This document shows positions 16,103 to 31,148 of a stretch of DNA of 47,132 bases, one piece after another. Made by a program: the position numbers and the translations under genes. Source of the DNA: Chloroflexota bacterium (GTDB lineage Bacteria > Chloroflexota > Limnocylindria > P2-11E); assembly GCA_016183435.1 (NCBI GenBank), contig JACPEQ010000018.1, positions 1 to 47,132 on the forward strand. The letters run 5' to 3'. Within the stretch, counting starts at the first letter, position 1, and each line of letters opens with the position of its first letter. The notes beneath the pieces were generated by a model. The model saw only the letters and a program-made list of their open reading frames with translations, was not told the origin of the DNA and did not search any database.

Positions 16103-16432
16103 ATGCCGCGGTTCGCGCGCGACGAGGCCGAGGCGATACTCCCCAAGGTCGTGCCATACCTCGAGGACATCCACCGGCGGAAGCGGGCGTTCGATCGGAA
16201 CCCGACGGAGCCCCTCGCGGCCGAGATCCGCGCGCTGATCCGCTCGGTCGCGGAGATGGGCGTCGAGGTCAAGAGCCTCGACGACGGGCTGATCGACTTC
16301 CCGGCGGAGCGGCGCGGGCGTGAGATCTACCTGTGCTGGAAGCTCGGCGAGGGCGAACGGATCTCGTGGTGGCACGAGGTCGACACGGGCTTCGCCGGGC
16401 GACGCCCGATCACGGAGCTGTACGAGAACTGA
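16103..16432 (+). CDS. DUF2203 domain-containing protein
   Basis: EIYLCWKLGEGERISWWHEVDTGFAGRRPI is typical of DUF2203. ATG 16103. Confidence 0.7.
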   Translation: MPRFARDEAEAILPKVVPYLEDIHRRKRAFDRNPTEPLAAEIRALIRSVAEMGVEVKSLDDGLIDFPAERRGREIYLCWKLGEGERISWWHEVDTGFAGRRPITELYEN

Positions 16433-16464
16433 CGGCACGTCCCCTCTTGCGCCTGCGCAACGTG

Positions 16465-17376
16465 ATGCCGCATACATCTCCCATGGATCCAACGGAGCTC
16501 GCTTGGGCGGCAGGATTCTGGGATGGCGAAGGCTGGGCGAATCTCGTGCGCTGCGGACGCGGTGAACTGGTGCGACCGATGGGACGCATCAACCAGTCCG
16601 ATGTCCTGGGGGTCCCGGTAGCGCTCGCTCGATTCCGCAACGCGACCGGTCTCGGGACGGTCAGCGGTCCGCATCTCCAGAACGGACGCGAGCCGATCTA
16701 CCGATGGGTGATCTCCAGTCGGCCCGACGTGGAACGCCTTGGTCAGCTACTGGGTCCGTGGCTCGGGGACGTGAAGCGTCGTCAACTCGAGCAGTCGACC
16801 GGTGCTCGCCTGGAGCACGCCTCGTGGAGCGACCTCACGCCTAATGAGCGGCGCGCCTGGGGCGCTGGTCTGTGGGACGGCGAGGGATCTGTGTGCCTGC
16901 TGAGGCATCGAACTCACGACGGCTACTTCGTGCCGGAGGCCTCCGTCACGCAGTCATCGGATCAAGGTGTTCCCGAGGTGCTCATGAGGCTCGGGTCGAT
17001 CGGGCCGCCCGGCTTCGTCTACGGGCCGTTCCCTCAGGAGCAGCCGTACCTGCCCGTCTATCGCTGGAAGCTCTTCCGACTGCAGGAGATCCAAACCCTG
17101 CTCGGTCTCCTCAGGCCTTGGCTCGGTCCCGTGAAGATCGAACAGGCTGAGCACGTTGTCTCCGTTGTCGAAGCACAACTGAAGTTGCCGCGCGGGAATC
17201 CCGCGTGGGGATCGCACAAGACGCATTGCCTGCGAGGCCACGAATACGCGATCGCGCGTGTTCGCCCCTTCCGGGGACGAGGCACCAACGCCGACGCGCC
17301 TCGTGCGTCACATCAGTGTCTCGCGTGCGTGAGAGACGCGGCTCGTCGCCGGCGACAAGGAAAGAACGACGGCTGA
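16465..17376 (+). CDS. LAGLIDADG-type homing endonuclease-like protein with C-terminal Cys/His zinc-ribbon-like tail
   Basis: Two LAGLIDADG-like motifs: LAWAAGFWDGEGW and RAWGAGLWDGEGSV, about 125 aa apart. C-terminal HCLRGHEY...HQCLACV. GC visibly lower than the flanks. Confidence 0.7.
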   Translation: MPHTSPMDPTELAWAAGFWDGEGWANLVRCGRGELVRPMGRINQSDVLGVPVALARFRNATGLGTVSGPHLQNGREPIYRWVISSRPDVERLGQLLGPWLGDVKRRQLEQSTGARLEHASWSDLTPNERRAWGAGLWDGEGSVCLLRHRTHDGYFVPEASVTQSSDQGVPEVLMRLGSIGPPGFVYGPFPQEQPYLPVYRWKLFRLQEIQTLLGLLRPWLGPVKIEQAEHVVSVVEAQLKLPRGNPAWGSHKTHCLRGHEYAIARVRPFRGRGTNADAPRASHQCLACVRDAARRRRQGKNDG

Positions 17377-17408: not shown

Positions 17409-17651
17409 CTACTTGTCGAAATAAACCTTGTTGATCTCGATGTAGTTCTTCCACTTCTCGGGCACGGCGTCCTCGGGGAAGATCGCGCTCACTGGACACA
17501 CTGACTCGCACGCACCGCAGTCGATGCATTCGTCGGGATGGATGAAGTACATCTTGTCCGCGTCCGTCGTATAGATACAGTCAACGGGACACACATCGAC
17601 GCATGAAGCGTCCTTCACATCGATGCACGGTTCCGTGATCACGTAGGTCAT
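17409..17651 (-). CDS. fdxA: 7Fe ferredoxin (3Fe-4S plus 4Fe-4S)
   Basis: [27 protein letters not shown]...[21 protein letters not shown]: Cx7Cx3CP plus CxxCxxCxxxCP. ATG 17651. Confidence 0.9.
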
Positions 17652-17723
17652 CTGAGCAGCACTCCCTCTATCACCCGCGGTGCGAGCGCGATCTCGGCGC
17701 AAGGCTATCATCGGCTCGCGTTC

Positions 17724-18086
17724 ATGTCAGACGAGACCACCGAGTTCCCATTCCCATTCGACGTCACCGACGAAGAGCGCGCGACCGCGCGCTCCGAGTT
17801 CGGCAAGTACGCGCGCATCGTTTCGGAGGACAAGGAGGCGATCCGCTTCGAAGGCAGGGCGCTCGGGAAGACCGGGCCGATCTGGCGCTTCCAGTACCTC
17901 CGCATGTACCGGCTGCACAAAGGGTTCCTCGTCGCGGGCCACGAGCTCCGCGAGGGCATCAAGGTCTTCCAGGCCGACTCGGCCGAGGCGCTCCCGCGAT
18001 GCTTCGAGCACGAAGGCGTGGCCGAGTTCATCGAGGACGAGCTGCGCTACCGCGGCGTGATCGGGAGCGAGCACGCCCGAGCCTGA
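17724..18086 (+). CDS. hypothetical protein (120 aa)
   Basis: ATG start, coherent coding bias, no motif recognised. Confidence 0.55.
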
Positions 18087-18177
18087 TCCCCGCCGGCCCG
18101 ATCCGGCCGCGCTCGCGCGCCGGCGGAAGGCACGGCGCGGCCCGAAGCGCGAGCCCATCGCCGACGAGCCGCCGCGC

Positions 18178-18555
18178 TTGCGCTGCGACAATCCACCGCC
18201 GCACGAGCTGACGCGGGCCATCGAGCAGTTCAACGCCGGCGAGCTCTTCGAGCAGCACGAGACGCTCGAGACGCTCTGGCGCGCGACGGACGCGCCCGTG
18301 CGCGGTCTGTATCACGGGATCCTGCAGATCGGGATCGGGATGCATCACTGGTCCAACGGCAACTTCCACGGGGCGACCGTCCTGCTCGCGGAAGGCATCG
18401 AGCGCCTGCGGCCGTTCGCGCCGTCGTGCCAGGGGGTGGACGTCGCGGCGCTGATCGCCGACGCCTCGGCGGCGCGCGAGGACCTGCTGCGGCTCGGCTC
18501 GGAGCGGATGAGGGAGCGCGACGCGCGGCGCACGCTGCGGGTGCGCGCGGCCTAG
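18178..18555 (+). CDS. DUF309 domain-containing protein
   Basis: FNAGELFEQHETLETLW...GLYHGILQIGIGMHH pattern of DUF309. TTG start. Confidence 0.7.
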   Translation: MRCDNPPPHELTRAIEQFNAGELFEQHETLETLWRATDAPVRGLYHGILQIGIGMHHWSNGNFHGATVLLAEGIERLRPFAPSCQGVDVAALIADASAAREDLLRLGSERMRERDARRTLRVRAA

Positions 18556-18884
18556 GAGCTCGGCGGGGTCTCCTCGACGGGCATGTCGACGGGCTTGAAC
18601 GCGGGCTGATCCCAACCGAGGAGCGTGTGCGGCGGCAGATTCAGCGCCTCGACGCCACGGAGGTCGGGGATGGCGTCCTTCAGCGCGCGCTCGATGCCGC
18701 TCTTCATCTGCAGCGAGAACACGAGCCGGTTCGGACCGGGGCGGGTGAGCCACAGGTGCACCTGGGCGATCCCGTCCTCCACGCCGAGCAGCTCGATGCT
18801 CGCCCCGGAGCGCTCGAGGTAGGGGCGCATCTCGTCCAGCCTCGCGGCGACGCGCTCCTTCAGATCGGCCATCGCGCCGATCAT
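18552..18884 (-). CDS. NifU C-terminal-like domain protein (lacks CxxC)
   Basis: Nfu-like layout (RPYLERSGASIELLGVEDGIAQVHL...MKSGIERALKDAIPDL), but no cysteine pair. Confidence 0.55.
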   Translation of the reverse strand: MIGAMADLKERVAARLDEMRPYLERSGASIELLGVEDGIAQVHLWLTRPGPNRLVFSLQMKSGIERALKDAIPDLRGVEALNLPPHTLLGWDQPAFKPVDMPVEETPPSS

Positions 18885-18931
18885 ACGGACGGAGGCGTCC
18901 CCGCGCCGCGGGTGGCAGCATAGACAGCCTC

Positions 18932-19717
18932 ATGTGCTACCCCCCGTCCGCACGGCCTCCGGAGATCCCCGCCGACCTACTGCGTCCCATCTCGGGCGGG
19001 GCGGGCGGCAGCGACGTGATCCTCACGAGCGAGGACGGCAACCGCTTCCGCGCGTACATCTCGCGCGCGCAGGACGGGGAAGGCGGTGTCGTCATCGCGC
19101 CTGACGTGCGCGGCCTGCATCCGTTCTACGAGGAGCTCGCCGAGCGCTTGGCGTCGGCCGGCGTGCACGCCATCGCGTTCGACTACTTCGGGCGCACCGC
19201 GGGGACCGACCGGCGCCCGCCGGACTGGGCGTACCAGGAGCACAACGCCAAGAACACGACGGGACAGATCCACGCGGACCTCACGACCGCCATCGGACAC
19301 CTGCGCGGCGCGACCGACGCGCGGAGCATCTACGTGATGGGCTTCTGCAAGGGCGGCCGCGTGGCGTTCAACTCGGCCGCCGAGCACAGCGGCATCGCCG
19401 GGGCGATCGGCTTCTACGGCTGGCCCACGCGGCGCTCGGACGAGGATCAGGGCGCTCCGGTCGACAACGTCGATCGGATGCACGTGCCGCTCCTGGGCCT
19501 CTTCGGCGGCGCCGACAAGGGCATCCCGCAGAGCGCGGTCGACACATTCGCGAAGGCGCTCGCTGGCCGCCGCGTGCGCCACTTCATCCACACGTATCCC
19601 GGCGCGCCGCACTCGTTCTTCGACCGCACCTTCGCGGAGCACAAGAACGAGTCCGATGACGCGTGGCGCCGGGTCTTGGGGTTCATCAGAACGGGGGATC
19701 CAGCGGCCCGCGCCTAG
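18932..19717 (+). CDS. dienelactone hydrolase family protein
   Basis: VVIAPDVRGLHPFYEELAERLASAGVHAIAFDYF and nucleophile motif GFCKGG. C-terminal YPGAPHSF. Confidence 0.8.
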   Translation: MCYPPSARPPEIPADLLRPISGGAGGSDVILTSEDGNRFRAYISRAQDGEGGVVIAPDVRGLHPFYEELAERLASAGVHAIAFDYFGRTAGTDRRPPDWAYQEHNAKNTTGQIHADLTTAIGHLRGATDARSIYVMGFCKGGRVAFNSAAEHSGIAGAIGFYGWPTRRSDEDQGAPVDNVDRMHVPLLGLFGGADKGIPQSAVDTFAKALAGRRVRHFIHTYPGAPHSFFDRTFAEHKNESDDAWRRVLGFIRTGDPAARA

Positions 19718-19728
19718 CGCCGATCGAG

Positions 19729-21723
19729 CTAGGAGACCCGCCTCCGCTTGTTGTCGACGTAGTCGATCAGCACGTACTCACCGAGCCGCTCCGGCTCGAC
19801 GTAGAACGCGCGCCCGTGGTTGATCTTGGACATCTGGTTCACGAAGTCCACCAGGTAGTGGCCGCGCGCGAGCATGAACGTGTTGATCGTGATGCCCTCG
19901 CGCGTGCAGCGGACCACCTCGCGCAGCGTTTCCTCGAAGGTGCGGCGCGCCGGCGGGTACGAGAACTTGGGACGCCCGTCCTCGAAGTGCGCGGTCGGCT
20001 CGCCGTCGGTGATGAGGATCACCTGCTTGTTCTTGCCGCGTGAGCGCGACAGCAGCGTCCGGGCGGTCTCGAAGGCGTGCTGCATGTTCGTCCCGTACAC
20101 GTACTCGTTCCACGTGAGCCGCGGGAGGTCCGCCGGCTTCAGCTGTGTCGCGTACGCCGAGAACCCGACGATGTAGAGGTCGTCCTTCGGGAACGTCGAC
20201 CGGATCAGCGAGTCGAGCGCGAGCGTGACCTTCTTCGCCGCGAGGAAGCACCCGCGGAAGAGCATCGACCGCGACACGTCCACGAGGATCGCGGTCGCCG
20301 ACTGCGTCATCAGCTCCGTGCGGTAGACCGCGAAGTCCTCCGCGGAGAGGCGCACCGGCGTGCCGGGTCCCCCGCGCATGACCGCGCCGCGCACGGTGCC
20401 CGGCAGGTCGAGCAGGAACGGGTCGCCGAACTCGTACGTCTTGAGGTCGTCCGTCGGGTCGCCGCCGCGGCCGCGATGGCGCATGCGGTGGCTGCCGAAC
20501 GCGTCGCGCTTCAACGTCGCGAAGATCTCCTCGAGCGAGCGCTGCCCGATCTTCCGGATGCCGCGCGGCGTGAGCTCGTAGCGCGGGCCGTCCTTCCGTA
20601 TGAGGCCCGCCTCCTCGAGCAGCTCCCACATGCGCTGGATCTCCTCCAGCGTCCGCCGCGCCTTCTTGCCGGCGAGGTGCTCGACCTCGGAGGGATCGAT
20701 GTCCTTCAGGTCGTCCGGGCCGCTCGCGACCCGCAGCTGGCCCTCGAGGTCGGTGAGGCGATCCATCTGCCGCATGAGCTCGAGCGCCTCGGCGAGCGAG
20801 ACCGGGTCGTCGCCGCTCATCTCGTAGCCGTGGCCGTCCATGGGCACCAGCTCGGAGAGCGTGTCGGCGAGGTCGCTCATGGCCTGCTGCAGCCCGGCGT
20901 CCTGGAACGCGGTGCCGAGCAGGTCCTCGAGCTGGTCGCGCATGTCCGACGGCATGCTCTGCCAGAGGGATCGCATCGCGGCCATGCCCGCGGCGATCTG
21001 GCGCGTGAGGTCGTCCCAGTCCTTCGCGCTGCCGGCGAGCTCGGGGTACTCGCGCTGGAACGCCTCGAAGTCCGGCTCGCCGCCCTCCATGCGCTCGCGC
21101 AGCGCCCTGTTGAGGTCCTTGATCATCCTCCTGGTGCGCTCGAGCTGCTCCGGAGTGAGGTTCTTCAGTGAGTCGCGCATGTTCGAGAAGTACGACCCCA
21201 GGACCTGCTCCTGCAGCATCTGCAGGAGCTCCTGGTACGCCTGCGCCGCCTTCGGCTCGACGAACTCGTAGTCCTTGAGGTCGCGGATCGCGCGGCCCAC
21301 GTCCGGAGGCAGCGCGTCGAGACGATCGATGCGCTCCTGGGCCATCCGCTGCATCGCCTCGTGCATCTCGGGCGTCGGCGCGTCCGCGTGCATGCGCCGC
21401 TCGAGGCCCTCGCGCTCGAGGCGCTTCACCTCGTCGAGCTTCTCGCGGAGCTGGTCGAAGATCTTGGACAGGCCGTGACGCTCGGCACGCTTCTGCCGCG
21501 CCGCGCGCATCCGCTCGATGAGGTCCTGGAATCCCTCCATGCGACCGGCCATGCCGAAGCGCGCCAGTCGCGCCATGGCCTCCTCGACGTCGGCGCCGGA
21601 CAGGAGCTCGTCGGCCATCGCGTTCAGCAGCTCCTCGGCCTCGATCGCGTCGAACCGCTGGGTGCCGTCCCATCTGCGGTATTTGATGGGCCCGAAGGCC
21701 TCGGGGAACGGCGTCTCGCTCAT
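19729..21723 (-). CDS. VWA domain-containing protein (long helical N-terminal region plus C-terminal von Willebrand A domain)
   Basis: 664 aa. MIDAS-type DVSRSM, later GTNMQHAF and ILITDGEPT. About 430 aa of acidic, helical-looking N-terminal sequence. Start is 1 nt after the upstream stop. Confidence 0.85.
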   Translation of the reverse strand: MSETPFPEAFGPIKYRRWDGTQRFDAIEAEELLNAMADELLSGADVEEAMARLARFGMAGRMEGFQDLIERMRAARQKRAERHGLSKIFDQLREKLDEVKRLEREGLERRMHADAPTPEMHEAMQRMAQERIDRLDALPPDVGRAIRDLKDYEFVEPKAAQAYQELLQMLQEQVLGSYFSNMRDSLKNLTPEQLERTRRMIKDLNRALRERMEGGEPDFEAFQREYPELAGSAKDWDDLTRQIAAGMAAMRSLWQSMPSDMRDQLEDLLGTAFQDAGLQQAMSDLADTLSELVPMDGHGYEMSGDDPVSLAEALELMRQMDRLTDLEGQLRVASGPDDLKDIDPSEVEHLAGKKARRTLEEIQRMWELLEEAGLIRKDGPRYELTPRGIRKIGQRSLEEIFATLKRDAFGSHRMRHRGRGGDPTDDLKTYEFGDPFLLDLPGTVRGAVMRGGPGTPVRLSAEDFAVYRTELMTQSATAILVDVSRSMLFRGCFLAAKKVTLALDSLIRSTFPKDDLYIVGFSAYATQLKPADLPRLTWNEYVYGTNMQHAFETARTLLSRSRGKNKQVILITDGEPTAHFEDGRPKFSYPPARRTFEETLREVVRCTREGITINTFMLARGHYLVDFVNQMSKINHGRAFYVEPERLGEYVLIDYVDNKRRRVS

Positions 21724-21724
21724 C

Positions 21725-23122
21725 TCAGCCGCGGAACGTGGACCGCGTCTCGCCGCGCTCCTTGTTGAGCTTCCGGTTGAGGTGCAGTCCCTCGAGGATG
21801 AACTCGACGGCGGCGGCGATGGCGGCCTGGTTCCCCGTGGCGCCGAGCTTCGCGACGGCGCCCTTCATGCCCGGGATCTGCAGTGCCTGCTTCACGTACT
21901 CGGTGCTCGGCAGCGACGACGACACGTGCATCGTCGCGCCGCGCTGGAACGCGCCGAGCAGCGCGTCGAACTCGGCGAGCGCGAAGGTCCGGTTGAACAC
22001 GTTCAGCACCGCGCGCTGGGTGAGGCGCTCGATGACCCGCTCCTCGGAGGTCTCACCGACGGACTCGAGCTCGATCTTCCCGGCCGTCGATGCGACGACG
22101 GCGGGCAGGTCGCTGATCCGCGGCACGACCGCGTTCTCACCGAGCCGGAGCGCACGCTTCAGCGCGTTGGACACGAGGTTCTCGTAGTTCGCGATGGTCA
22201 CGCGCACGGAGACGCCCGACCGCTGCGAGATCTCGGGCGAGCGCCGGGCGAGGTGGGAGAGCTCGGCGAGGACCTCCTTCATGTATGCCGGGACGGTCGT
22301 GGTGATGCCCTCGTCGACGTACTCGGAGCGCTCCTGCTCCATGATCCCGACCTCGGTCCCGATCTCATGCGGGTAGTGCGTACGGATCTGCGAGCCGAAG
22401 CGGTCCTTGAGCGGCGTGATGATGCGCCCGCGGTTCGTGTAGTCCTCGGGGTTCGCGGAGGCGACGACGAAGAGATCGAGCGGGAGCCGGACCTTGTACC
22501 CGCGGATCTGCACGTCGCGCTCCTCCATCACGTTGAGGAGGCCGACCTGCACGCGCTCCGCGAGGTCGGGCAGCTCGTTCAGCGTGAAGACGCCGCGGTG
22601 CGTGCGCGGGAGGAGCCCGTAGTGGATGGTCATCTCGTCGGAGAGGTAGCGGCCCTCCGCGACCTTGATCGGGTCGACCTCGCCGATAAGATCGGCGATG
22701 GAGATGTCCGGCGTCGCGAGCTTCTCGGTGTAGCGGCGATCGGGCGTGAGCCATACGAGCTCGACGGCGTCGCCGTCGTTCGCGATGCGATACCGGCAGG
22801 AGGCGCAGATCGGATCGAACGGCTCATCGTTGATCTCGCATCCGGCGATCGCCGGCACGGCGGCGTCGAGGAGCGACACGAGCGAGCGCGCGATGCGCGT
22901 CTTCGCCTGTCCCCGCTCGCCGAGCAGGATGACGTCCTGCCCGGAGAGGATCGCGTTCTCGATCTGCGGGATCACGGTGGCCTCGTAGCCGACGATGCCC
23001 GGGAACAGGGGCCGGCCGTCGCCGAGCGCCGCGATGAGGTTCGCGCGCATCTCCTCCTTCACCGAGCGCGTGCGGTAGCCCGTCTCGCGGAGCGCGCCGA
23101 TGGTCGTCGGTCGGTCGTTCAT
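21725..23122 (-). CDS. ChlI/BchI-like AAA+ ATPase
   Basis: 465 aa. Walker A GERGQAKT, Walker B-like VFTLNELPD, sensor region VVASANPEDY. Cys cluster CEINDEPFDPICASC. ATGA overlap with the upstream gene. Confidence 0.85.
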   Translation of the reverse strand: MNDRPTTIGALRETGYRTRSVKEEMRANLIAALGDGRPLFPGIVGYEATVIPQIENAILSGQDVILLGERGQAKTRIARSLVSLLDAAVPAIAGCEINDEPFDPICASCRYRIANDGDAVELVWLTPDRRYTEKLATPDISIADLIGEVDPIKVAEGRYLSDEMTIHYGLLPRTHRGVFTLNELPDLAERVQVGLLNVMEERDVQIRGYKVRLPLDLFVVASANPEDYTNRGRIITPLKDRFGSQIRTHYPHEIGTEVGIMEQERSEYVDEGITTTVPAYMKEVLAELSHLARRSPEISQRSGVSVRVTIANYENLVSNALKRALRLGENAVVPRISDLPAVVASTAGKIELESVGETSEERVIERLTQRAVLNVFNRTFALAEFDALLGAFQRGATMHVSSSLPSTEYVKQALQIPGMKGAVAKLGATGNQAAIAAAVEFILEGLHLNRKLNKERGETRSTFRG

Positions 23123-24024
23123 GCCTTATTCCATCCCTTCGCTCGGGGGGATCCCTCGCCCTTCACGCTCTCTCCGCGCCGCGCGGCCACCGCGGCACGG
23201 ACCGCCGGGATGGCGAAGATGCCGCGTTCGCCGAGATCCCGCAGATACGCGGCACGGACGTCCAGCTCCGCGCGCAGCTCGCCGACGTGGCCGCCGCGCC
23301 GCGCGCGGAGCAGCTCGAGCTGTGCGCTCTCGTCGTGCTCGTGCGCGTCGCGGTCGCCGTCCCATCCCACCAGCGGGACCAGGCTCACGCCGCCGCGCAG
23401 GTCGGAGCTGAGCCGATGCGCGGACACGACGCGGCGGGCGATGGGACCGTACGCCGTTCCGACGCGATACATGCGCATCACGAGGAGCAGGTCCACCCGC
23501 GCGAGATCCTCGGCGTCGACGCCGAGCTCGCCGGTGAGCTGAGCGACGGCCTCCTCCGCGCTGTCCGCGTGCAGCGTGGAGGCGAGCGCGTATCCGCGCC
23601 CGAGCGTGTGGAAGACCTCCACCGCCTTCGATCCCCACAGGTAGACCGGGAGGTGGCTGGACAGCTCGTTCGCCAGCAGGAGCGTCCGCCGCGGGTCGGT
23701 GTGGCGCAGGAAGTCGAATGTCTCGGCCCAGCCGCGCACGAAAACGCGGCACACGTCGGCCGGGAGGAGATCGAGGAACGCCGTGAGCGTCGTCGTCTTG
23801 CCCGAGTGGGGCTGCTCCGCGGCGATGAGGATGGATCCGTGCGCCTCGAGCACGAGCCAGCAGAGCGCGGCGGTGCGTGCGTCGAAGTTGCCGGCGGCGA
23901 GGAGCTCGGTGATCGACATCGGGACCGGCGGCTCCCAGCTCCAGCCCCACCAGCCGATCGGGACGTCGTAGTCCTCGGCCGAGAGCGGTCGCTCGCGGAC
24001 CTGATACGAGCGCGGTGCCTCCAT
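23119..24024 (-). CDS. stand-alone VirB11/PilT/CpaF-like secretion-type ATPase core
   Basis: 301 aa. Walker A AEQPHSGKTTTL, Walker B-like TLLLANELS, His-box-like ASTLHADSAEEAVAQL. Confidence 0.7.
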   Translation of the reverse strand: MEAPRSYQVRERPLSAEDYDVPIGWWGWSWEPPVPMSITELLAAGNFDARTAALCWLVLEAHGSILIAAEQPHSGKTTTLTAFLDLLPADVCRVFVRGWAETFDFLRHTDPRRTLLLANELSSHLPVYLWGSKAVEVFHTLGRGYALASTLHADSAEEAVAQLTGELGVDAEDLARVDLLLVMRMYRVGTAYGPIARRVVSAHRLSSDLRGGVSLVPLVGWDGDRDAHEHDESAQLELLRARRGGHVGELRAELDVRAAYLRDLGERGIFAIPAVRAAVAARRGESVKGEGSPRAKGWNKA

Positions 24025-24074
24025 CTACCGAGGCTAGCACCAGGACACCGCATTCCTACTAAAGTCAGGACCAA

Positions 24075-24362
24075 GTGAAAGAAGGGATCGAGCGAGGATC
24101 CGGATCTTCACCCCACGGATCCTCCGGATCCGCGGGGACCCCGGGTACGGCCGGGCCGAGCGAGTCCACAAGCAGCGGAGCGACCAGCCGCGAAGCGAGG
24201 CCGAAGGCCGAGCCGACGGCTATTGAACAGGACCAGCGCGACCCGGACGACCCGGCTCGCCTCGCGGACGAGGCGCGCGCCCTGACCGCGAAGTTCGCGG
24301 CGGACCTGCGCGCTGCGCAAGTGCCGATCGAGACCGAGCCGCCGACGGTGTACAAGCCCTGA
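24075..24362 (+). CDS. small protein with GatC/AtzG-like (DUF4089-like) C-terminus
   Basis: GTG start. Gly/Ser/Pro-rich N-terminus. The C-terminus LADEARALTAKFAADLRAAQVPIETEPPTVYKP resembles small amidase partner subunits. Its stop overlaps the amidase homology start. Confidence 0.45.
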   Translation: MKEGIERGSGSSPHGSSGSAGTPGTAGPSESTSSGATSREARPKAEPTAIEQDQRDPDDPARLADEARALTAKFAADLRAAQVPIETEPPTVYKP

Positions 24363-24412
24363 GCGCGTTCGCGACGATCGTCGAGCTCGCTGCGGCGCTG
24401 CGCGAGCGGCGC

Positions 24413-25807
24413 ATGAGCGCCGTCGAGCTCGCGACCGAGACGGTCGATCGCCTGGCGTCGCTCGGTCCGCGCTACAACGCGGTGGCGTCGCTGATGCGGA
24501 CGCGCGCGCTGCGCGAGGCCGCGGCCGCGGACCGCGCCATAGCCCGTGGCGACGCGCGCTCGCCGCTGCTCGGCATCCCGTATGGCGCGAAGGACCTCCT
24601 CGCCGCGCGCGGCGCGCCGACGACCTGGGGCGCCGCGCCGTACAGGGATCAGAAGCTTCGCTTCGACGCGACGGCGATCGCGAGGCTGCGCCGCGCGGGC
24701 GCCGTCCTCGCGGCGAAGCTCGCGATGGTCGAGCTGGCCGGAGGCGGGGGATACCGCTATCCGAGCGCGTCGCTGCAGGGACCCGGTCTGAACCCCTGGG
24801 ACGTCGGCCGCTGGGCCGGCGGATCGTCCAGCGGCAGCGCGGCCGCCGTCGCCGCGGGCCTCGTGCCGTTCGCCCTCGGGTCGGAGACGTCCGGATCGAT
24901 CGGCACGCCCTCCGCGTACTGCGGGATCACGGGCCTTCGTCCGACGTACGGGCTCGTCAGCCGTCACGGCGCGATGGCCCTCTCATGGACTCTGGACAAG
25001 ATCGGACCGCTGGCACGCACCGCGACCGACTGTGCGCACGTCCTCGCGGCCATCGCCGGGCCCGATGCGAAGGACGCGACGGTGAGCGGCAAGCGGTTCC
25101 GTCCGCTCTCGGCCGATGCGGCGCGCGACGCGATCGCCCGCGTCCGCGTCGGCTTCGCGGGTGACGAGCTCGAGCGCGCGGGCGACAGCGCGAAGCCCGC
25201 GATCATGCGCGGGATCGACGAGCTCCGTCGCATCGCGCCCACGTTCGTCGACGCGCGGCTGCCCGAGGACATCCCGTACGGGCCGATGGTCGCGACGGTG
25301 TACGGCGCGGAGGGGGCGACGATCTTCGCGGAGCTCATCGAGAGCGAGCGGCTCGACCTCATGCCCGACGCCCGCCAGAAGGCGGGGTTCCGCGCTGCGC
25401 TCGAGATCCGTGCGCGCGACTACCTCCAGGCGATGCGCCTGCGGACCGTGCTCGCCGCGAGGATGCGCGAGGTCTTCACGACGTGCGACGTCATCGTGTC
25501 CGCCGGCCGCACCGCGACGGCGACCGGCATCGACCAGCCGCTCGACTCGTCCGCCTTCCCGCCGGGGGCGTCCGCGGCCCGCGACACCGCCGCGCCGCCG
25601 CCGCGTCCGGGCAACCTCCTGCTCATCCCCGCCGGCAACCTCGCGGGCCTGCCCGCGATCTTCTTCCCGTGCGGGCTCGGGACCGACGGCCTGCCGGCGG
25701 GGCTCCAGCTCGTCGGTCCCCCGTTCTCCGAGCCGCTGCTGGTCGCGCTCGCTGAGGCCTACCAGCGCGAGACCGACCACCACCGGCGGCGGCCGCCGGC
25801 CGCGTAG
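24413..25807 (+). CDS. amidase (amidase-signature family)
   Basis: GGSSSGSAAAV and GSETSGSIGTPSAYCGITGLRPTYG signature. Typical N-terminal homology (LSAFATIVELAAALRERR) extends upstream to a CTG at 24359, so the true start may be 24359. Confidence 0.9.
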   Translation: MSAVELATETVDRLASLGPRYNAVASLMRTRALREAAAADRAIARGDARSPLLGIPYGAKDLLAARGAPTTWGAAPYRDQKLRFDATAIARLRRAGAVLAAKLAMVELAGGGGYRYPSASLQGPGLNPWDVGRWAGGSSSGSAAAVAAGLVPFALGSETSGSIGTPSAYCGITGLRPTYGLVSRHGAMALSWTLDKIGPLARTATDCAHVLAAIAGPDAKDATVSGKRFRPLSADAARDAIARVRVGFAGDELERAGDSAKPAIMRGIDELRRIAPTFVDARLPEDIPYGPMVATVYGAEGATIFAELIESERLDLMPDARQKAGFRAALEIRARDYLQAMRLRTVLAARMREVFTTCDVIVSAGRTATATGIDQPLDSSAFPPGASAARDTAAPPPRPGNLLLIPAGNLAGLPAIFFPCGLGTDGLPAGLQLVGPPFSEPLLVALAEAYQRETDHHRRRPPAA

Positions 25808-25865
25808 TCCATTTTCGATGCGCGGGAGCGCATCTGGACGCGTGATCGTCCGCTGGCTATACACG

Positions 25866-25950
25866 TCCCCCGGGCGCGCAGACCGAGACGCGAAGCGGCG
25901 AGGTCGAGCACCTGGGCCTGAGCGAGGGGTCTCCCCGAGCGAGGGTCGGA
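25866..25950 (+). repeat. repeat family 1, copy C (short form)
   Basis: tcccccgggcgcgcagaccgagacgcgaagcggcgaggtcgagcacctgggcctgagcgaggggtctccccgagcgagggtcgga. Confidence 0.9.
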
Positions 25951-25967
25951 ACAGGAGGGGGTGGCAC

Positions 25968-26555
25968 ATGGCCAGGATGACCTGGGCGATCCTTGCGTTG
26001 GCGAGCCTGGTCGCGGTCGCGTGCGCCGGAGGCGCGAACGTCGGACGCTCCTCGGCGACGCCGAACCCGGATCCCTATGACGAGTCGCCGACGTCGGTCG
26101 TCGCGAACGCGGCGATCATGAACAAGGACGGGAAGGTCGTCGGGCTCGCGAGCTTCCGCGAGACGCGCACGGGCGTCCGCGTCGAGATCAAGGTCACCGG
26201 CATGCCGCCGGGGCAGCATGGGACGCACATCCACGGCGTGGGCAAGTGCGACGGACCGGACTTCACCACCTCGGGCGGCCACTTCAACATCAACGACAAG
26301 ATCCATGGCGTCCCGGGCGCCGTGACCGCGCACGCCGGCGAGCTGCCGAACCTCGAGGTCGGCTCCAACGGTACGGGATCGCTCGTCTTCTACTCGCCGC
26401 ACCTCAGCCTGAACCGGGCCCAGTCGAACGGGCTCGCCTTCGGTCTCGGGACGGCGGTGGTCATCCACGCGCAGGAGGACGACTACAAGACGCAACCCGC
26501 GGGGAACAGCGGCGCGCGCATCGCCTGCGGGGTGGTCAGACTCGCGAATCCCTAG
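25968..26555 (+). CDS. sodC: superoxide dismutase [Cu-Zn], probable lipoprotein
   Basis: ATG 25968 after an AGGAGGGGG Shine-Dalgarno sequence. Signal peptide with LVAVAC. HGTHIHGVGKCD, GGHFN, HAGELPNL, VVIHAQEDD, RIACGVV. Confidence 0.9.
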   Translation: MARMTWAILALASLVAVACAGGANVGRSSATPNPDPYDESPTSVVANAAIMNKDGKVVGLASFRETRTGVRVEIKVTGMPPGQHGTHIHGVGKCDGPDFTTSGGHFNINDKIHGVPGAVTAHAGELPNLEVGSNGTGSLVFYSPHLSLNRAQSNGLAFGLGTAVVIHAQEDDYKTQPAGNSGARIACGVVRLANP

Positions 26556-26559
26556 CACG

Positions 26560-27033
26560 CTACGGAAGCGCGTCGCGTCCGTTGGGGGACTGCTGGAGAT
26601 CCGCTTCGACACGCTCGTTGCCCGTTGTGCCTTCCTCGGCAGTGAGGCGGAAGGCCATGTGGCGCCCCGCGATCGTGATCGTCGTGAGCATGAAGGCCGC
26701 GAACGGCGCGATCGCGACGAGCGTGAAGACGGTCGTCCCGCCGCTGAGGACCCGCTCGATGACGACCGTCGCCGCGTACCAGAAGGCGAACGTGAGCGAC
26801 GTCTCGCGGATGGGGAAGGTGATCGGGCTCCGCGGCGAGCGCCGCTGCGGCCGCCGCTCGGGCGGCAGCAGCGCCTCCTCCGCACGGCGCCGCCGCACGT
26901 CGCGTCGCATGAGCGCACCGACGGTCACGGCCGAGACCACGGTCAGCACGAGGTAGAACGCGACGCCGGCGGTGCTGCCGAACGAGAAGGACGCGATCGC
27001 GAACAGGAAAGACAGCATGGCGATCCCGCCCAA
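26560..27033 (-). CDS. hypothetical membrane protein
   Basis: Several hydrophobic segments (MLSFLFAIASFSF..., FAFWYAATVVI, VFTLVAIAPFAAFML). Follows glcF on the same strand. Confidence 0.55.
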   Translation of the reverse strand: MGGIAMLSFLFAIASFSFGSTAGVAFYLVLTVVSAVTVGALMRRDVRRRRAEEALLPPERRPQRRSPRSPITFPIRETSLTFAFWYAATVVIERVLSGGTTVFTLVAIAPFAAFMLTTITIAGRHMAFRLTAEEGTTGNERVEADLQQSPNGRDALP

Positions 27034-27053
27034 GACGACAGAGACCGCGCGCG

Positions 27054-28469
27054 TTACGAAGCGGATCTGGAGCGGCCTCCCAACGTCTCGCCTCGCTCTT
27101 CCGAAGCGTACTTGGCGAGGGCCCGGTCGAGCACCTCGACGATGTGCAGCACCGGCAGGTCGCTACCACGTGCCTTCAGCCCCGACGCGATCTGCAGCAT
27201 GCATCCCGGGTTCGCGCTGACGACGGCGTCCGCCTTCGTCGAGAGGATCGCCGCGACCTTGGAGGCCTGGAGCGCGTCGGCGTAGGCGGGCTGAGTCACG
27301 TTGTAGGTGCCGGCGCTGCCACAGCACACGTCGGCCTGCGGCATCTCGACGAGGTCGAGTCCTTCGACCCGGCGCAGGAGCGAGCGCGGCTGTGTCCGGA
27401 TGCCCTGCGCGTGCGCGAGGTGACAGGCGTCCTGATAAGTGACCCGCATCCGCAGGCGCCCGAGCGTCGCCGGCAGGTCGGTCGCCGCGAGTTGTTCGCT
27501 CACGTCGCGCACGTTCGCGGCCATCGCCGCGGCGCGCTCACGCCACGCGGGATCGTCCGCGAGCAGCTCGCCCCAGCCCCTCATGTGCGCGCCGCAGCCT
27601 GCGGCGTCGACGACGATCGCGTCGACGTTCGCGCGCTCGAACGCCGCGATGCCGCGGCGCGCGAGTCCGCGAGCGGCGTCGCGGTCTCCGGCGTGCGCGT
27701 GGAGCGCGCCGCAGCAGGCCTGGTCGGGCACATCGACGATCTCGTACCCGAACCGCACCAGGACGCGCGCCGCGGCCGTGTGCACGTCGCCGTACGCCAC
27801 GCGCATCACGCAGCCGAGCAGCAGCGCCACCCGCGCGTGGGGCGCCGGCGGCGGCGCGGGCGCGCGGTATCGCGGACGCGTGAGCGGCGGGTACATCGCC
27901 TCGAGCCGCCGCAGCCGCGACGGCAGAGCGCGCACGAGGCCCGTCGCGTGGAGCAGGCGCCGGATCCCGAGCCGTTCGTAGAGCGATGTGATGCGTGCGA
28001 CGAGATCGAGCACGCGCGGGCGCGCGACGACGCCGCGCAGCAGGATGTCGCGCAGGCGGGACCGCGGCGCGCAAGCGGTGAGCTCGCCGTGTGCGAGCTC
28101 GATGAGACGGCCGTACGGGACGCCGGAGGGGCACGCGGCCTCGCAGGCGCGGCAGCCGAGGCAGCGGTCCAGATGCACGGACACGCTCGGGGTCGGCTCG
28201 ATGCGGCCCTTGGCCAGCGCGTCCATGAGATGGATGCGGCCGCGCGGCGACTCCGTCTCGAGCCCCGTGAGCAGGTACGTGGGGCAGGCCTGCAGGCACA
28301 TCCCGCAGCGGATGCACTGCTGCAGCGCGTCCAGTCCGACCCTCAGCCGGGCAAAGCCCTCCTTCGGGCCCAGGGGTAGGGGCCCCTGTGCGCGAAGCGC
28401 GTGCTCGACCTCGCCGGTTCGGCCCTGCCTCACCGCCTCGGTCTGCGCGCCCAGGGGACGCGCGCTCAC
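27054..28469 (-). CDS. glcF: glycolate oxidase iron-sulfur subunit GlcF
   Basis: CIRCGMCLQACP and CLGCRACEAACP ferredoxin-type motifs plus two CCG domains (QACCGA, DVCCGSAG). The only in-frame starts upstream of the first Cys motif are GTG 28469 (GTGA overlap with the glcE stop) and GTG 28433. Both make the N-terminus repeat-encoded. Confidence 0.85.
   Translation of the reverse strand: MSARPLGAQTEAVRQGRTGEVEHALRAQGPLPLGPKEGFARLRVGLDALQQCIRCGMCLQACPTYLLTGLETESPRGRIHLMDALAKGRIEPTPSVSVHLDRCLGCRACEAACPSGVPYGRLIELAHGELTACAPRSRLRDILLRGVVARPRVLDLVARITSLYERLGIRRLLHATGLVRALPSRLRRLEAMYPPLTRPRYRAPAPPPAPHARVALLLGCVMRVAYGDVHTAAARVLVRFGYEIVDVPDQACCGALHAHAGDRDAARGLARRGIAAFERANVDAIVVDAAGCGAHMRGWGELLADDPAWRERAAAMAANVRDVSEQLAATDLPATLGRLRMRVTYQDACHLAHAQGIRTQPRSLLRRVEGLDLVEMPQADVCCGSAGTYNVTQPAYADALQASKVAAILSTKADAVVSANPGCMLQIASGLKARGSDLPVLHIVEVLDRALAKYASEERGETLGGRSRSAS
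28334..28460 (-). repeat. repeat family 1, copy D (long form), embedded between glcE and the conserved part of glcF
   Basis: The reverse complement reads cgtcccctgggcgcgcagaccgaggcg...gaggtcgagcacgcgcttcgcgcacaggggcccc...ggctgagggtcgga. It shares the long-form insert with copy G. Confidence 0.85.
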
Positions 28470-29611
28470 GGCATGCGGCCCGGCGCGAGGACGGCGCGGG
28501 GATCGAACAGGGACCGCAGCCGGCGCGACAGCTCGAGAGGGATGCGTGGCGTACCCCACGTGCCCGCCGCGCGGCGCAACTCGGTGGGGGCGCGTTCGAT
28601 CACGAGCGCGCCCGCGGAGGATTCGGCGGCGCCGCGGACGCCGCGCAGGGTCTCGGCGTCGGTCTCGTCGAGGAGGTGCGCGATCTCGATCCCGGGGTAC
28701 CAGAGCGAGTTCGCCGTGTAGGCCTCGACCGGCTCGCCCGCGGGCCAGGTCCCGCGGAGGGACGTGGCCGCGTCCGCCGGCAGATCGGCGATGCGCCGCC
28801 ACACGTCGTGCCCGACATCGGCCATCGCCGTCCGCCGCTCGAGGGTCGCGCGCAGGCGATCGACGGCGGCGCGCGTGCCCGCGAGGCGCGTGAAGAGCGC
28901 GGTCCACGTCGGACCGCCGAGAGGTTCGGTCTGCGGCCCGGTGACGAGCGCGATCGCGTCGAAGGGTGGCCGCTCCCGCATCAGGTCGCGGACCATGCGG
29001 TACGCGTGCGCGAGCGTCGGCATGTCCGCGCGCACGGTGAGACGGTGCTCCGGCAGCGGCACGAGCTTCAGCGTCACCTCGACGATCGCGCAGAGCGTCC
29101 CGAACGACCCGCTGTACAGGCGTGTGAGGTCGTATCCGGTCACGTTCTTCACCACGCGGCCGCCGGCCTTCGTGGCCGTGCCGTCGCCGAGGACCGCACG
29201 GACGCCGATGGTCCAGTCGCGCGGGTGGAAGTAGCGGTAGCGCGCCGGGCCGTCCGCGGCGCTCGCGATGGTGCCGCCGACCGTGGCGCGTTCGGGATGC
29301 GCCGCCTCGACCGGCCACCACTGGCCGTGCGCCACGAGCGCGGCCTGCAGCTCCGCCATCGTCGTGCCGGCGCGCACCGTGACGGTGAGGTCCGCGGGCT
29401 GGTGGTCGACGATGCCGCGATGCCCGCGCAGGTCGAGCGCGACGTCGTATCGCTCCGGCGGGTCGCCGATGCCGATCCGGGTGCCGCCGCCCCAGATCAC
29501 GATCGCCGAACGGTCCTCGTTGGCCGCGCGGATCGCGCTCACGACATCGGCCTCGCTCTCCGCGGCGACGTGGTGGCGCGGCACCATGCCGTCGATCGTG
29601 AACGCGGCCAC
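28466..29611 (-). CDS. glcE: glycolate oxidase FAD-binding subunit GlcE
   Basis: FAD/PCMH-type domain (IVIWGGGTRIGIG, VTVRAGTTMAELQAAL, VKNVTGYDLTRLYSGSFGTL). GTG 29611 chosen, with ATG 29587 as an alternative. It is the real part of track ORF 28466..30154. Confidence 0.85.
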   Translation of the reverse strand: MAAFTIDGMVPRHHVAAESEADVVSAIRAANEDRSAIVIWGGGTRIGIGDPPERYDVALDLRGHRGIVDHQPADLTVTVRAGTTMAELQAALVAHGQWWPVEAAHPERATVGGTIASAADGPARYRYFHPRDWTIGVRAVLGDGTATKAGGRVVKNVTGYDLTRLYSGSFGTLCAIVEVTLKLVPLPEHRLTVRADMPTLAHAYRMVRDLMRERPPFDAIALVTGPQTEPLGGPTWTALFTRLAGTRAAVDRLRATLERRTAMADVGHDVWRRIADLPADAATSLRGTWPAGEPVEAYTANSLWYPGIEIAHLLDETDAETLRGVRGAAESSAGALVIERAPTELRRAAGTWGTPRIPLELSRRLRSLFDPRAVLAPGRMP

Positions 29612-29623
29612 GTCGTTGAGAAC

Positions 29624-29659
29624 GGGGGGTGGAAGGGGGGCGGAGCCCCCCTGCGAGGA
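29624..29659 (+). repeat. repeat family 2 (G/C hairpin element), copy 2
   Basis: ggggggtggaaggggggcggagcccccctgcgagga in the 53-nt glcD-glcE gap. Same absolute strand as copy 1. Confidence 0.8.
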
Positions 29660-29664
29660 AGGTG

Positions 29665-31095: not shown

Positions 31096-31148
31096 CTTGG
31101 GCAGGATACCGACGACGTGGGCGCCGCGCGGCGAGCCGCTACGCCAGC

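Follow-up and report, generated by a model that had tools for sequence, protein, structure and literature searches.

What does the core of a secretion-type ATPase do in an operon with an AAA+ ATPase and a von Willebrand factor A (VWA) protein, and do the three genes belong together at all? This question is raised by positions 19,729 to 24,024 of a 47,132-nucleotide stretch (contig JACPEQ010000018.1 of assembly GCA_016183435.1, about 70% G+C, referred to here as the window) from a soil Chloroflexota bacterium, which the names of the closest protein relatives assign to the class Candidatus Limnocylindria. Calling of open reading frames (ORFs) gave three minus-strand ORFs of 301, 465 and 664 amino acids, in that order, which we refer to as gene 1 (23119-24024), gene 2 (21725-23122) and gene 3 (19729-21723). 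An earlier note, made from the sequence alone, had described them as a translationally coupled operon for a VirB11-like ATPase, a ChlI-like AAA+ ATPase and a large VWA protein with no client gene, and had proposed that they are an undescribed system. Direct reading agreed with the layout given in that note. The gene 1 stop and the gene 2 start share an ATGA at 23119-23122 ('…AAG GCA TGA' over 'ATG AAC…'), which we read as translational coupling, and the TGA of gene 2 is separated from the ATG of gene 3 by one nucleotide at 21724 ('…GGC TGA g ATG AGC…'). All the motifs that had been quoted are present as well (AEQPHSGKTTT, LLLANELS and STLHADS in gene 1, GERGQAKT, FTLNELPD and CEINDEPFDPICASC in gene 2, and DVSRS...T...D in gene 3). 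The G+C content of the three genes is 0.90-0.97 at third (GC3) and 0.42-0.50 at second (GC2) codon positions, values that genuine genes of this 70% GC genome usually have.

The three genes form a conserved, translationally coupled three-protein operon of Chloroflexota. We surveyed one genome per species in GTDB with a gene 1 pattern, L[VCA]NE[IL]S[SDP]HLP, which came from an 11-sequence alignment and was taken from the loop after Walker B; because it is a single pattern, the survey is biased towards Chloroflexota-like members. There were 103 confirmed matches, and 80 loci were kept. By record title these belong to Chloroflexota (Limnocylindria, Thermomicrobiales, Chloroflexia and Dehalococcoidia), the sole exception being a 1.5-kb contig binned as Acidiferrales. 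We classified 81 ORFs of the gene 1 family with a family hidden Markov model (HMM) and tblastn; 74 could be evaluated, and 7 were on contigs too short. Gene 2, together with gene 3 where the contig reaches that far, lies directly downstream on the same strand in 58 of the 74 loci, each from a different species-level genome. The pair of gene 2 and gene 3 is 3.5-4 kb downstream of gene 1 in another 2 loci, gene 3 is directly upstream of gene 1 in 1, and the remaining 13 have full flanks with neither gene 2 nor gene 3.

The spacing of the linked genes follows their lineages, with a 4-nt stop/start overlap in most Limnocylindria loci and a gap of 28-230 nt in Thermomicrobiales. In a neighbour-joining tree the linked gene 1 genes are spread over several deep branches, at gene 1 identities down to 35% and among wholly different flanking genes. 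The trio ranges over Limnocylindria, Thermomicrobiales (Thermomicrobium roseum DSM 5159, Thermalbibacter, Nitrolancea and Sphaerobacteraceae) and Chloroflexia. In T. roseum DSM 5159 it is on megaplasmid NC_011961.1, where it is annotated as 'type II secretion system protein E' (TRD_RS11475), 'sigma 54-interacting transcriptional regulator' (TRD_RS11480) and 'VWA domain-containing protein' (TRD_RS11485); Thermalbibacter longus and Thermomicrobium sp. CFH 73360 carry it too. With order, strand and tight spacing repeated in 58 loci, the three-gene arrangement is not a matter of chance, the outcome under which the note would have given up its idea of a unit. The linkage between gene 1 and the pair is frequent, and it is not obligate in either direction.

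Some loci of the survey showed arrangements of their own. In two of them (L066:5974-8825 and L071:5742-8816) a gene 3-like VWA gene is followed directly by a gene 1-like gene on the same strand, and gene 2 was not detected in the flanks; this arrangement points to the VWA protein as the closest partner of gene 1. One Chloroflexia metagenome-assembled genome (MFD05942.bin.2.347) has two paralogous orphan gene 1 genes (L077 and L081), and in L081 and L075 gene 1 is followed by a gene resembling those for FAD-dependent monooxygenases. In 13 Thermomicrobiales loci a gene for a small protein of 87-123 amino acids with the motif 'YRYEDILRAIGRFIDE...QDVxILQ...G(I/V)LLRG...RRGTGS' lies after gene 3 on the same strand; examples are L087:8089-8454 (T. 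roseum TRD_RS11490), L074:12417-12785, L062:12644-12964 and L095:8189-8491. It may be a fourth member of the operon in Thermomicrobiales. No relative of it was found in the window or in the Limnocylindria loci.

Gene 1 encodes a stand-alone P-loop protein of 33 kDa. The type II secretion ATPase family of Pfam (T2SSE, PF00437) matched it with 23.1 bits, below the gathering cut-off of 24.9, and some close homologues have a precomputed PF00437 match. Among NCBIfam models, FlaI/ArlI (NF058587) scored 49.3 bits against a cut-off of 550 and VirB11 (TIGR02788) 12.1 against 250. The only real sequence matches in the PDB were archaeal GspE (afGspE, 2oap; E = 6e-8) and FlaI (4ihq and 4ii7; E = 1e-5), and these alignments span only residues ~230-485 of chains of 511-513 residues, that is, their C-terminal ATPase domain. 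An AlphaFold2 (AF2) model built from 42 diverse family members had a mean pLDDT of 91.2 and a pTM of 0.89. Searched with Foldseek, it matched afGspE 2oap and FlaI 4ii7 at E ~5e-18 (TMq 0.72, TMt 0.44, rmsd 2.9 A, 283 columns, 22-24% identity), a PilB model and TadA/CpaF at E ~1e-9 to 1e-8, and HP0525/VirB11 at E ~1e-5 with a TMq of about 0.4. The modelled structure identifies gene 1 as a C-terminal ATPase domain of the FlaI/archaeal-GspE type and not as a specifically VirB11-like one. Of the identity given in the earlier note, the RecA-like core of a type II/IV secretion-family ATPase stands, and the assignment to VirB11 is rejected because both the Foldseek and the NCBIfam scores favour FlaI/afGspE.

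Gene 1 has the RecA-like C-terminal domain of type II/IV secretion ATPases (GspE/PilB/PilT/VirB11/FlaI), with Walker A, a Walker B glutamate and a His box. The Walker A motif or P-loop, E70-QPHSGKTT-T79 (23788-23817, minus strand, as are all motifs of the three genes), has a G75 that is invariant and a K76 found in at least 90% of the 42 diverse members. The Walker B strand is T114-LLLANEL-S122 (23659-23685; family form 'TYLLxNExS'), with E120 in at least 90% of the members and S122 invariant. A pairwise phmmer alignment had suggested that the Walker B glutamate was lost; this was rejected, since the family alignment and the AF2 topology put E120 at the end of a strand. In the model, strand 114-117 and then N119-E120 are flanked by the Asp-box strand (92-95) on one side and, on the other, by the helix and strand that lead towards the His box, and because of this place we take the segment to be Walker B, in agreement with the assignment of LLLANELS in the note. 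E120, nearly invariant, is a candidate for the catalytic glutamate. The His box, S149-TLHA-D154 (23563-23580; family form 'T(M/L)HA'), aligns to STLHA of afGspE and has T150 and H152 in at least 90% of the members. Directly after Walker B there is a family-specific loop, S123-HLPVYLW-G131 (23632-23658; family form 'xHLPxYLWG'), which is without a counterpart in the afGspE and FlaI alignments; Y128 is invariant and W130 and G131 are found in at least 90%. An N-terminal PxxWWG motif, R197 and R257 are also conserved family-wide.

Gene 1 departs from the secretion ATPases in two respects. In place of the Asp box (hhhhEDxxE) it has the segment FVRGWAE, in which R97-G98 replaces E-D, the last glutamate (E101) is kept and G98 is invariant. 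Only ~35 residues precede the C-terminal domain, so that the N-terminal (N2/PAS-like) domain of ~230 amino acids is missing. In GspE, PilB and FlaI the N-terminal domain packs on the neighbouring subunit to make the hexamer. Gene 1 keeps the core ATPase residues K76, E120 and H152. When 1.84 billion representatives were searched exhaustively with phmmer, 707 relatives came up, of which 344, each standing for a cluster at 50% identity, had E <= 1e-10; the family occurs mainly in Chloroflexota. Almost all of them are 250-310 amino acids long, typically ~270; they make up a family of short stand-alone proteins, and gene 1 is not a truncated pseudogene. The few long members showed no informative domain fusions, only low-complexity tails or miscalled extensions, and 150 representatives included no protein in which gene 1 is joined to gene 2 or gene 3. 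Within Limnocylindria the mean column identity is 58%, with ~100 invariant positions, a pattern of strong purifying selection; decay of gene 1, which the note had considered as a refutation, is not what we see.

A secretion-type ATPase could be expected to drive a secretion, pilus or archaellum-type apparatus. The FlaI/GspE fold of gene 1 speaks for such a role, and archaellum clusters, including the FlaI/ArlI ATPase, reached Chloroflexota from archaea by horizontal transfer (PMC12488501). Alternatively the trio could be a mobile anti-phage defence system, since conflict systems occur among the MoxR/vWA ternary systems (PMC7159879). A secretion motor is unlikely because gene 1 is without the hexamer-packing N-domain and no platform protein, pilin or secretin is encoded nearby: Pfam searches of all called genes found no pilin, platform protein, secretin or coupling protein in the 47-kb window, and the orthologous loci, too, were without them and without ArlJ/H. 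As to defence, PADLOC-DB 2.0 gave no match for gene 1 and only weak generic AAA or coiled-coil matches for genes 2 and 3 (E >= 3e-4), there was no phage match, and the neighbourhood is a stable housekeeping one. With these components missing, both roles are largely refuted and we regard either as extremely improbable. The archaellum transfer would be a plausible origin for the gene 1 lineage. When a gene 1 relative was used as tblastn query, ATPases of the type II secretion/type IV pilus family from haloarchaea came next among the matches, at ~22% identity. Judged from its sequence, gene 1 fits no described member of the secretion-ATPase superfamily: the fold and core motifs agree, and the N-domain, the Asp box, the scores of the family models and the gene context do not.

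Gene 2 encodes a 51-kDa AAA+ ATPase related to ChlI/BchI. Pfam matches were AAA_5 (31.9 bits, cut-off 22), AAA_3 (27.6, cut-off 27) and Mg_chelatase (25.2, cut-off 20.3), as well as Sigma54_activat; the bpMoxR model scored 17 bits against a cut-off of 27. The best PDB match was ChlI (8osf, E = 1.5e-10), so the ChlI/BchI type named in the note holds. The NCBIfam models for BchI-ChlI (TIGR02030) and a putative cobaltochelatase (TIGR02442) scored 41.7 bits against a cut-off of 467 and 46.5 against 779. Motif conservation was read from 13 sequences of three lineages of Chloroflexota and Actinobacteria. Walker A, G68-ERGQAK-T75 (22898-22921), has the form GERGQ[AG]K[TS] with the lysine invariant. 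In Walker B, V178-FTLNELP-D186 (22565-22591), N182-E183-L-P-D is invariant, including in Actinobacteria, so that from Chloroflexota to Actinobacteria this family, which we refer to as the Rv0958 type (see below), has hhhhNE (Asn182-Glu183) and not the canonical hhhhDE. The block of sensor 1 and Arg finger, A221-SANPEDYTNRGRIITPLKDRF-G243 (22394-22462), is invariant across Chloroflexota and Actinobacteria, where it reads ANPEDYTNRGRIITPLKDR(F/Y)G; it resembles the ChlI block NPEEGxLRPQLLDRF. QRSGVS.R is invariant as well. A possible Zn-binding insert had been proposed for CEINDEPFDPICASC; its Cys triad is absent in Thermomicrobiales and in Tsukamurella, and we rejected it as a conserved site.

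Gene 3 encodes a 76-kDa protein of the Rv0959 type with an acidic helical N-terminus, a winged-helix-like module, a disordered linker and a C-terminal VWA domain. Pfam VWA_2 matched it with 30.5 bits, and no solved relative was found in the PDB. The AF2 model has low confidence (pLDDT 63.5) and was used for gross architecture only: helices at ~29-292, helical and winged-helix-like parts at ~310-405, a disordered linker at ~407-438 and VWA at ~474-642. The N-terminal 430 amino acids have a net charge of -21 and a pI of 5.0 and are helical in this low-confidence model, as the note had supposed. The acidic helical region itself (residues ~25-300, 20824-21651) has a net charge of -18 and a pI of 4.8, again with helices in the low-confidence model, and Pfam found no AAA match in the N-terminus. 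The winged-helix-like module (residues ~353-405, LLEEAGLIRKDGPRYELTPRGIRKIGQ, 20509-20667) is conserved across phyla, is modelled as a helix, two strands and a helix, and has weak Pfam/NCBIfam matches to HVO_A0261_N and Sso10a. The VWA domain (residues ~474-642, 19798-20304) carries a MIDAS, an adhesion site that depends on a metal ion, made of D482-x-S484-x-S486 (20266-20280), T545 (20089-20091) and D573 (20005-20007), read as DVSRS...GTN...TDGE. Its five residues are invariant in 24 sequences, three of them actinobacterial, and the MIDAS is accordingly intact, as claimed. Genes 2 and 3 have the general make-up of a MoxR-clade pair, an AAA+ gene of the H2-insert clade 1 nt from a VWA gene with a complete MIDAS.

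Gene 3 orthologues at 76-93% identity have precomputed matches to PF27532 (Mb0984_helical), PF27098 (Rv0959_3rd) and PF13519 (VWA_2) in 120 of the 120 listed, and the syntenic gene 3 orthologues in L001, L003 and L005, contigs with gene 1 homologues, have the same three families. The architecture of Mb0984_helical, Rv0959_3rd and VWA is assigned through these orthologues; a Pfam scan of the window gene 3 itself returned neither PF27532 nor PF27098. When annotated records were searched with gene 3 by tblastn, three actinobacterial homologues (Tsukamurella, Nonomuraea and Nocardia) were found with 31-34% identity over at least 94% of the length. Immediately before each of them lies a gene 2 homologue with 46-49% full-length identity, the two genes being adjacent or overlapping. 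Like genes 2 and 3, the actinobacterial pair is collinear and of similar length, with identical Walker A, 'NELPD', sensor/Arg-finger and MIDAS motifs. The Tsukamurella pair, annotated as 'sigma 54-interacting transcriptional regulator' and 'VWA domain-containing protein', is just downstream of purN-purH, which presumably matches the position of Rv0958/Rv0959 after Rv0956/Rv0957 in M. tuberculosis H37Rv. The link to Rv0958/Rv0959 draws on this gene order and on the names of the Pfam families. It also draws on the orthologue length of ~463 amino acids (PMC11237697). On these grounds we assign genes 2 and 3 to the Rv0958/Rv0959-type pair of M. tuberculosis, as full-length orthologues of the actinobacterial pair.

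The actinobacterial pair differs from the trio in that it is without gene 1; the family HMM found none in the three loci. No gene 1 relative was found by tblastn in the 11.85-Mb Nonomuraea chromosome record either, with gene 1 or its Streptomyces relative as query. A hypothetical gene of 286 amino acids upstream of the Tsukamurella pair was considered as a cryptic gene 1 and rejected (hhalign probability 0.2%). About 3 kb from the pair in Tsukamurella tyrosinosolvens (L088:10895-13615) there is a cluster of rpsR, rpsN, rpmG, rpmB, type B L31, rpmF and a 'GTP-binding protein' that looks like a zinc-sparing (Zur-type) cluster; its proximity may be coincidental or could bear on a metal-related role.

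The pair has been encountered under several names (Rv0958/Rv0959, MSMEG_5512/5513 and mmar_4541), with the labels 'magnesium chelatase' or 'sigma-54-interacting regulator' and VWA. MSMEG_5512, the M. smegmatis orthologue, was recovered with RNA polymerase in an affinity purification-mass spectrometry screen and showed no DNA association (PMC7092591), and it is a ClpC1 interactor (PMC10433963). Rv0959 turns up in transposon sequencing (Tn-seq) and antigen lists. The literature searched reports no function for the pair, only interactome and Tn-seq listings. The AAA+/VWA pair is therefore already catalogued (PF27532, PF27098), widespread in Actinobacteria and functionally uncharacterised.

Could the operon be a divergent metal chelatase for Mg or Co, like ChlI/ChlD or CobS/CobT, or another device for cobalamin-related metal insertion? 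In the PDB and NCBIfam, gene 2 best matches ChlI, BchI and a putative cobaltochelatase, and B12-resistant mutants included one with a transposon 49 bp upstream of the M. marinum Rv0958 orthologue (PMC11237697). However, the gene 2 scores given above are far under the cut-offs, and gene 3 lacks the AAA-like N-terminus of BchD. Neither the window (Pfam, all called genes) nor the orthologous loci have a gene for chelatase H/CobN, carbon monoxide dehydrogenase (CODH), nitric oxide reductase (NOR) or RuBisCO, and the surroundings of the operon, both in the window and at four orthologous loci, gave no Rfam family, the cobalamin riboswitch included. The host organisms are, as far as records show, not phototrophs. 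We consider a chelatase very improbable. That the locus is neither a known chelatase nor a Tad-type pilus operon, a point left to be checked by the note, is borne out by the scores and by the missing H/CobN and pilus genes; that the window holds no pilus gene and no gene for a known AAA+/VWA client was likewise correct.

A different kind of client is suggested by gene order. In norCBQD, cbbLSQO and coxMSLDEF the client genes come first, followed by the AAA+ gene and then the VWA gene. In NorQ/NorD, a hexameric AAA+ motor works with one VWA adaptor, an acidic residue of the target serves as sixth ligand of the MIDAS metal, and ATP hydrolysis remodels the target (PMC9976466); binding of the target by the MIDAS is also stated as a general mechanism of AAA+/VWA systems (PMC7159879). 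Most likely the three proteins form one complex of AAA+ motor, MIDAS adaptor and gene 1. Within it we tentatively favour, by analogy, gene 1 as the protein that is bound by the MIDAS adaptor and acted on by the AAA+ ring. Gene 2 would form a hexameric ring motor, as in NorQ/NorD, CbbQ/CbbO, CoxD/CoxE and BchI/BchD, and gene 3 would be the adaptor whose MIDAS metal captures an acidic residue of the target, which ATP hydrolysis would then remodel. Gene 1 would be a dedicated, Chloroflexota-specific partner made in fixed ratio via translational coupling, and it might be assembled, loaded with nucleotide or metal, or reset. We favour gene 1 as the target because it is in the client position of the nor, cbb and cox operons and stands beside gene 3 even without gene 2. 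Since the pair occurs without gene 1 in Actinobacteria, gene 1 would be an add-on and not part of the core motor. The statement in the note that the operon has no client gene holds for the known client types; gene 1 itself may be the client.

Several observations count against gene 1 as the client of the pair. For 13 members the complete flanks contain neither gene 2 nor gene 3, and their neighbours are unrelated. Divergent members without the pair include one of Streptomyces sp. NBC_01275, near genes for non-ribosomal peptide and polyketide synthases (NRPS/PKS), those of marine Dehalococcoidales and one upstream of a hybrid histidine kinase. Conversely, one Chloroflexota contig (L097) has the pair with no gene 1 within 6 kb. 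No set of residues separates linked from orphan gene 1 proteins, and the conserved surface motifs of gene 1 may therefore serve a partner other than the pair. Gene 1 also evolves much faster, with 35-40% identity as against 64-66% for genes 2 and 3 between the same lineages. To our knowledge, an AAA+/VWA chaperone with a ring ATPase core for a client would be without precedent, and the chemistry of the gene 2 ATPase may be atypical, since Asn replaces Asp of Walker B in every member. Searches that started from gene 3 found, in addition, a contig with gene 3 and no gene 2 in the 6 kb upstream, and the trio in Nitrolancea. The Streptomyces member (L091:8001-8846, WP_266405296.1, 34% identity) lies immediately upstream of an adenylation/PKS/condensation cluster with a resolvase near; being rare outside Chloroflexota, it may reflect horizontal transfer.

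The same orphans raise the question of whether gene 1 is a functionally independent small NTPase that has been the first gene of the operon since the ancestor of Limnocylindria and Thermomicrobia and was simply kept by inheritance. Orphans in unrelated contexts, divergent members beside NRPS/PKS genes, a histidine kinase or nothing notable, the pair alone in L097 and Actinobacteria, and the want of linked-specific residues would all fit. But order, strand and tight spacing have held at 35-40% gene 1 identity with all flanks different, and the 4-nt stop/start overlap has been kept in most Limnocylindria loci. The alternative order, gene 3 and then gene 1, still puts gene 1 beside the VWA gene, and persistence of gene order in prokaryotes normally reflects functional coupling. 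We think it improbable that gene 1 is independent.

The main rival to gene 1 as a client is a role as co-motor or regulatory subunit, a second nucleotide-binding ring or switch docked on the AAA+/VWA complex. It might stand in for the degenerate AAA module that forms the N-terminus of BchD/ChlD and is absent from gene 3, where a helical region replaces it, or it might gate the complex by its nucleotide state. Gene 1 has kept K76, E120 and H152 while losing the ED of the Asp box and the N-domain, as expected for a binder or switch, translational coupling implies a fixed stoichiometry, and the linkage has lasted over deep divergence. On the other hand, Actinobacteria and some Chloroflexota have the pair but not gene 1, some gene 1 members are orphans, ring formation would be doubtful without the N-domain, and none of the 150 representatives has gene 1 fused to gene 2 or gene 3. 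We regard a co-motor as somewhat less likely than a client. The broader idea that two unrelated ring-ATPase superfamilies meet in one soluble machine, with gene 1 either its substrate or a second motor or switch docked on the remodeller, is a possibility that we put forward with reserve.

If gene 1 does belong to an AAA+/VWA machine, be it as the client that we favour or otherwise, the target side of the Rv0958/Rv0959 module would be revealed, together with a new cytoplasmic role for secretion-ATPase cores. Conservation of the Rv0958/Rv0959-type pair is high, with 46-49% identity for gene 2 from Chloroflexota to Actinobacteria; M. tuberculosis has the pair, and the trio gives a functional lead to it. 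For other AAA+/VWA pairs, identifying the client explained the system, and gene 1 is a concrete candidate partner in a cultured organism, T. roseum DSM 5159. With at least 344 clusters at 50% identity, the gene 1 family shows a FlaI/GspE-type core persisting as a soluble stand-alone protein without a secretion or pilus apparatus, which the papers searched do not describe. The three genes are probably misnamed by their present annotation labels, 'type II secretion system protein E', 'sigma 54-interacting transcriptional regulator' and 'magnesium chelatase'.

The operon promoter is presumed to be in the divergent intergenic region between gene 1 and an amidase gene (24025-24412). No sigma-70 consensus site and no Rfam match was found in this region, and the placement thus follows from position alone; the consensus scan found neither a sigma-70 promoter nor a convincing terminator and is uninformative for this phylum. 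The region includes a plus-strand ORF of 95 amino acids (24075-24362), on the same strand as the amidase gene and without a Pfam match. L001 and L005 have a gene of 60-72 amino acids called at its position. This ORF might encode a GatC-like partner of the GatA-like amidase.

Pfam searches of all called genes placed genes for a ferredoxin, DUF309, a NifU-like protein, dienelactone hydrolase, amidase and Cu/Zn superoxide dismutase around the operon. The neighbourhood at 17409-19717 and 24413-31817 is kept across Limnocylindria (ferredoxin, DUF309, NifU-like, dienelactone hydrolase, amidase, GlcDEF-like FAD/Fe-S oxidase and MoaE-ThiS), and the superoxide dismutase gene at 25965-26555 is additional in the window. 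Because these housekeeping neighbours are shared across Limnocylindria, the operon lies in a stable core-genome region and not in a variable island. Elsewhere the window encodes aldehyde:ferredoxin oxidoreductase, 2-oxoacid dehydrogenase with lipoate-synthesis genes, GlcDEF-like oxidase subunits, MoaE/ThiS, a CorC-type transporter, ParAB, an ABC transporter, acetyl-CoA synthetase and prolyl oligopeptidase. A plus-strand ORF of 347 amino acids at 16333-17376 has two 'G(F/L)WDGEG' motifs and a Cys/His-rich C-terminal tail, with no Pfam match at 1e-3. In appearance it is a double-LAGLIDADG homing-endonuclease-like protein. With a GC3 of no more than 0.71, and with the local GC down to 0.648 at 16-18 kb, it may be a mobile or foreign gene.

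How does the trio compare with known systems? NorQ/NorD, CbbQ/CbbO and CoxD/CoxE resemble genes 2 and 3 in that an AAA+ protein is followed by a protein of ~70 kDa in which a disordered linker joins an N-terminal domain to a C-terminal VWA domain with MIDAS. Their gene order is X, AAA+, VWA, and here it is the same with gene 1 as X. In contrast to NorQ and CbbQ, gene 2 is ~200 amino acids longer, is closer to ChlI and has NE instead of DE in Walker B. Whereas the client in the nor, cbb and cox operons is a metalloenzyme, the gene in the client position here encodes a soluble ATPase core, and no metal-cofactor enzyme is nearby. BchI/ChlI and BchD/ChlD likewise pair an AAA+ ring with a MIDAS/VWA protein that carries an acidic region, and ChlI is the best solved match for gene 2. 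They differ in that genes 2 and 3 score far below the cut-offs of the BchI-ChlI and BchD models, gene 3 is without the AAA-like N-terminus, there is no H subunit and gene 1 has no counterpart.

Gene 1 superposes on the C-terminal ATPase domain of FlaI/ArlI and afGspE (2oap) and shares with them the P-loop, the Walker B glutamate, the His box and the C-terminal helical subdomain. Unlike them it is without the ~230-residue N-domain, has RG..E for ED..E and carries a PxxWWG motif and a SxHLPxYLWG loop of its own, and unlike FlaI it is not accompanied by ArlJ, ArlH, archaellin or pilin genes. A parallel in composition is the ternary systems in which a MoxR-clade AAA+ protein and a vWA protein act with a third, lineage-variable partner, some of which are conflict systems (Kaur, Burroughs, Iyer and Aravind 2020, PMC7159879). 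There the third partner is VMAP, a beta-propeller or an effector, and no secretion-type ATPase is mentioned in that paper, whereas the present operon has no effector domain, no PADLOC match and a stable housekeeping context. The pair is thus related to the Mg-chelatase I/D, NorQD/CbbQO/CoxDE and MoxR-vWA-VMAP families and is not a member of any of them. In the literature searched we found no paper that describes the trio or the gene 1 family, and to that extent the proposal of an undescribed system stands; it does not extend to the AAA+/VWA pair, which is a catalogued family. What is new is an AAA+/VWA module of a known family that has an unusual third partner, on which it would act much as NorQ/NorD and its relatives act on theirs.

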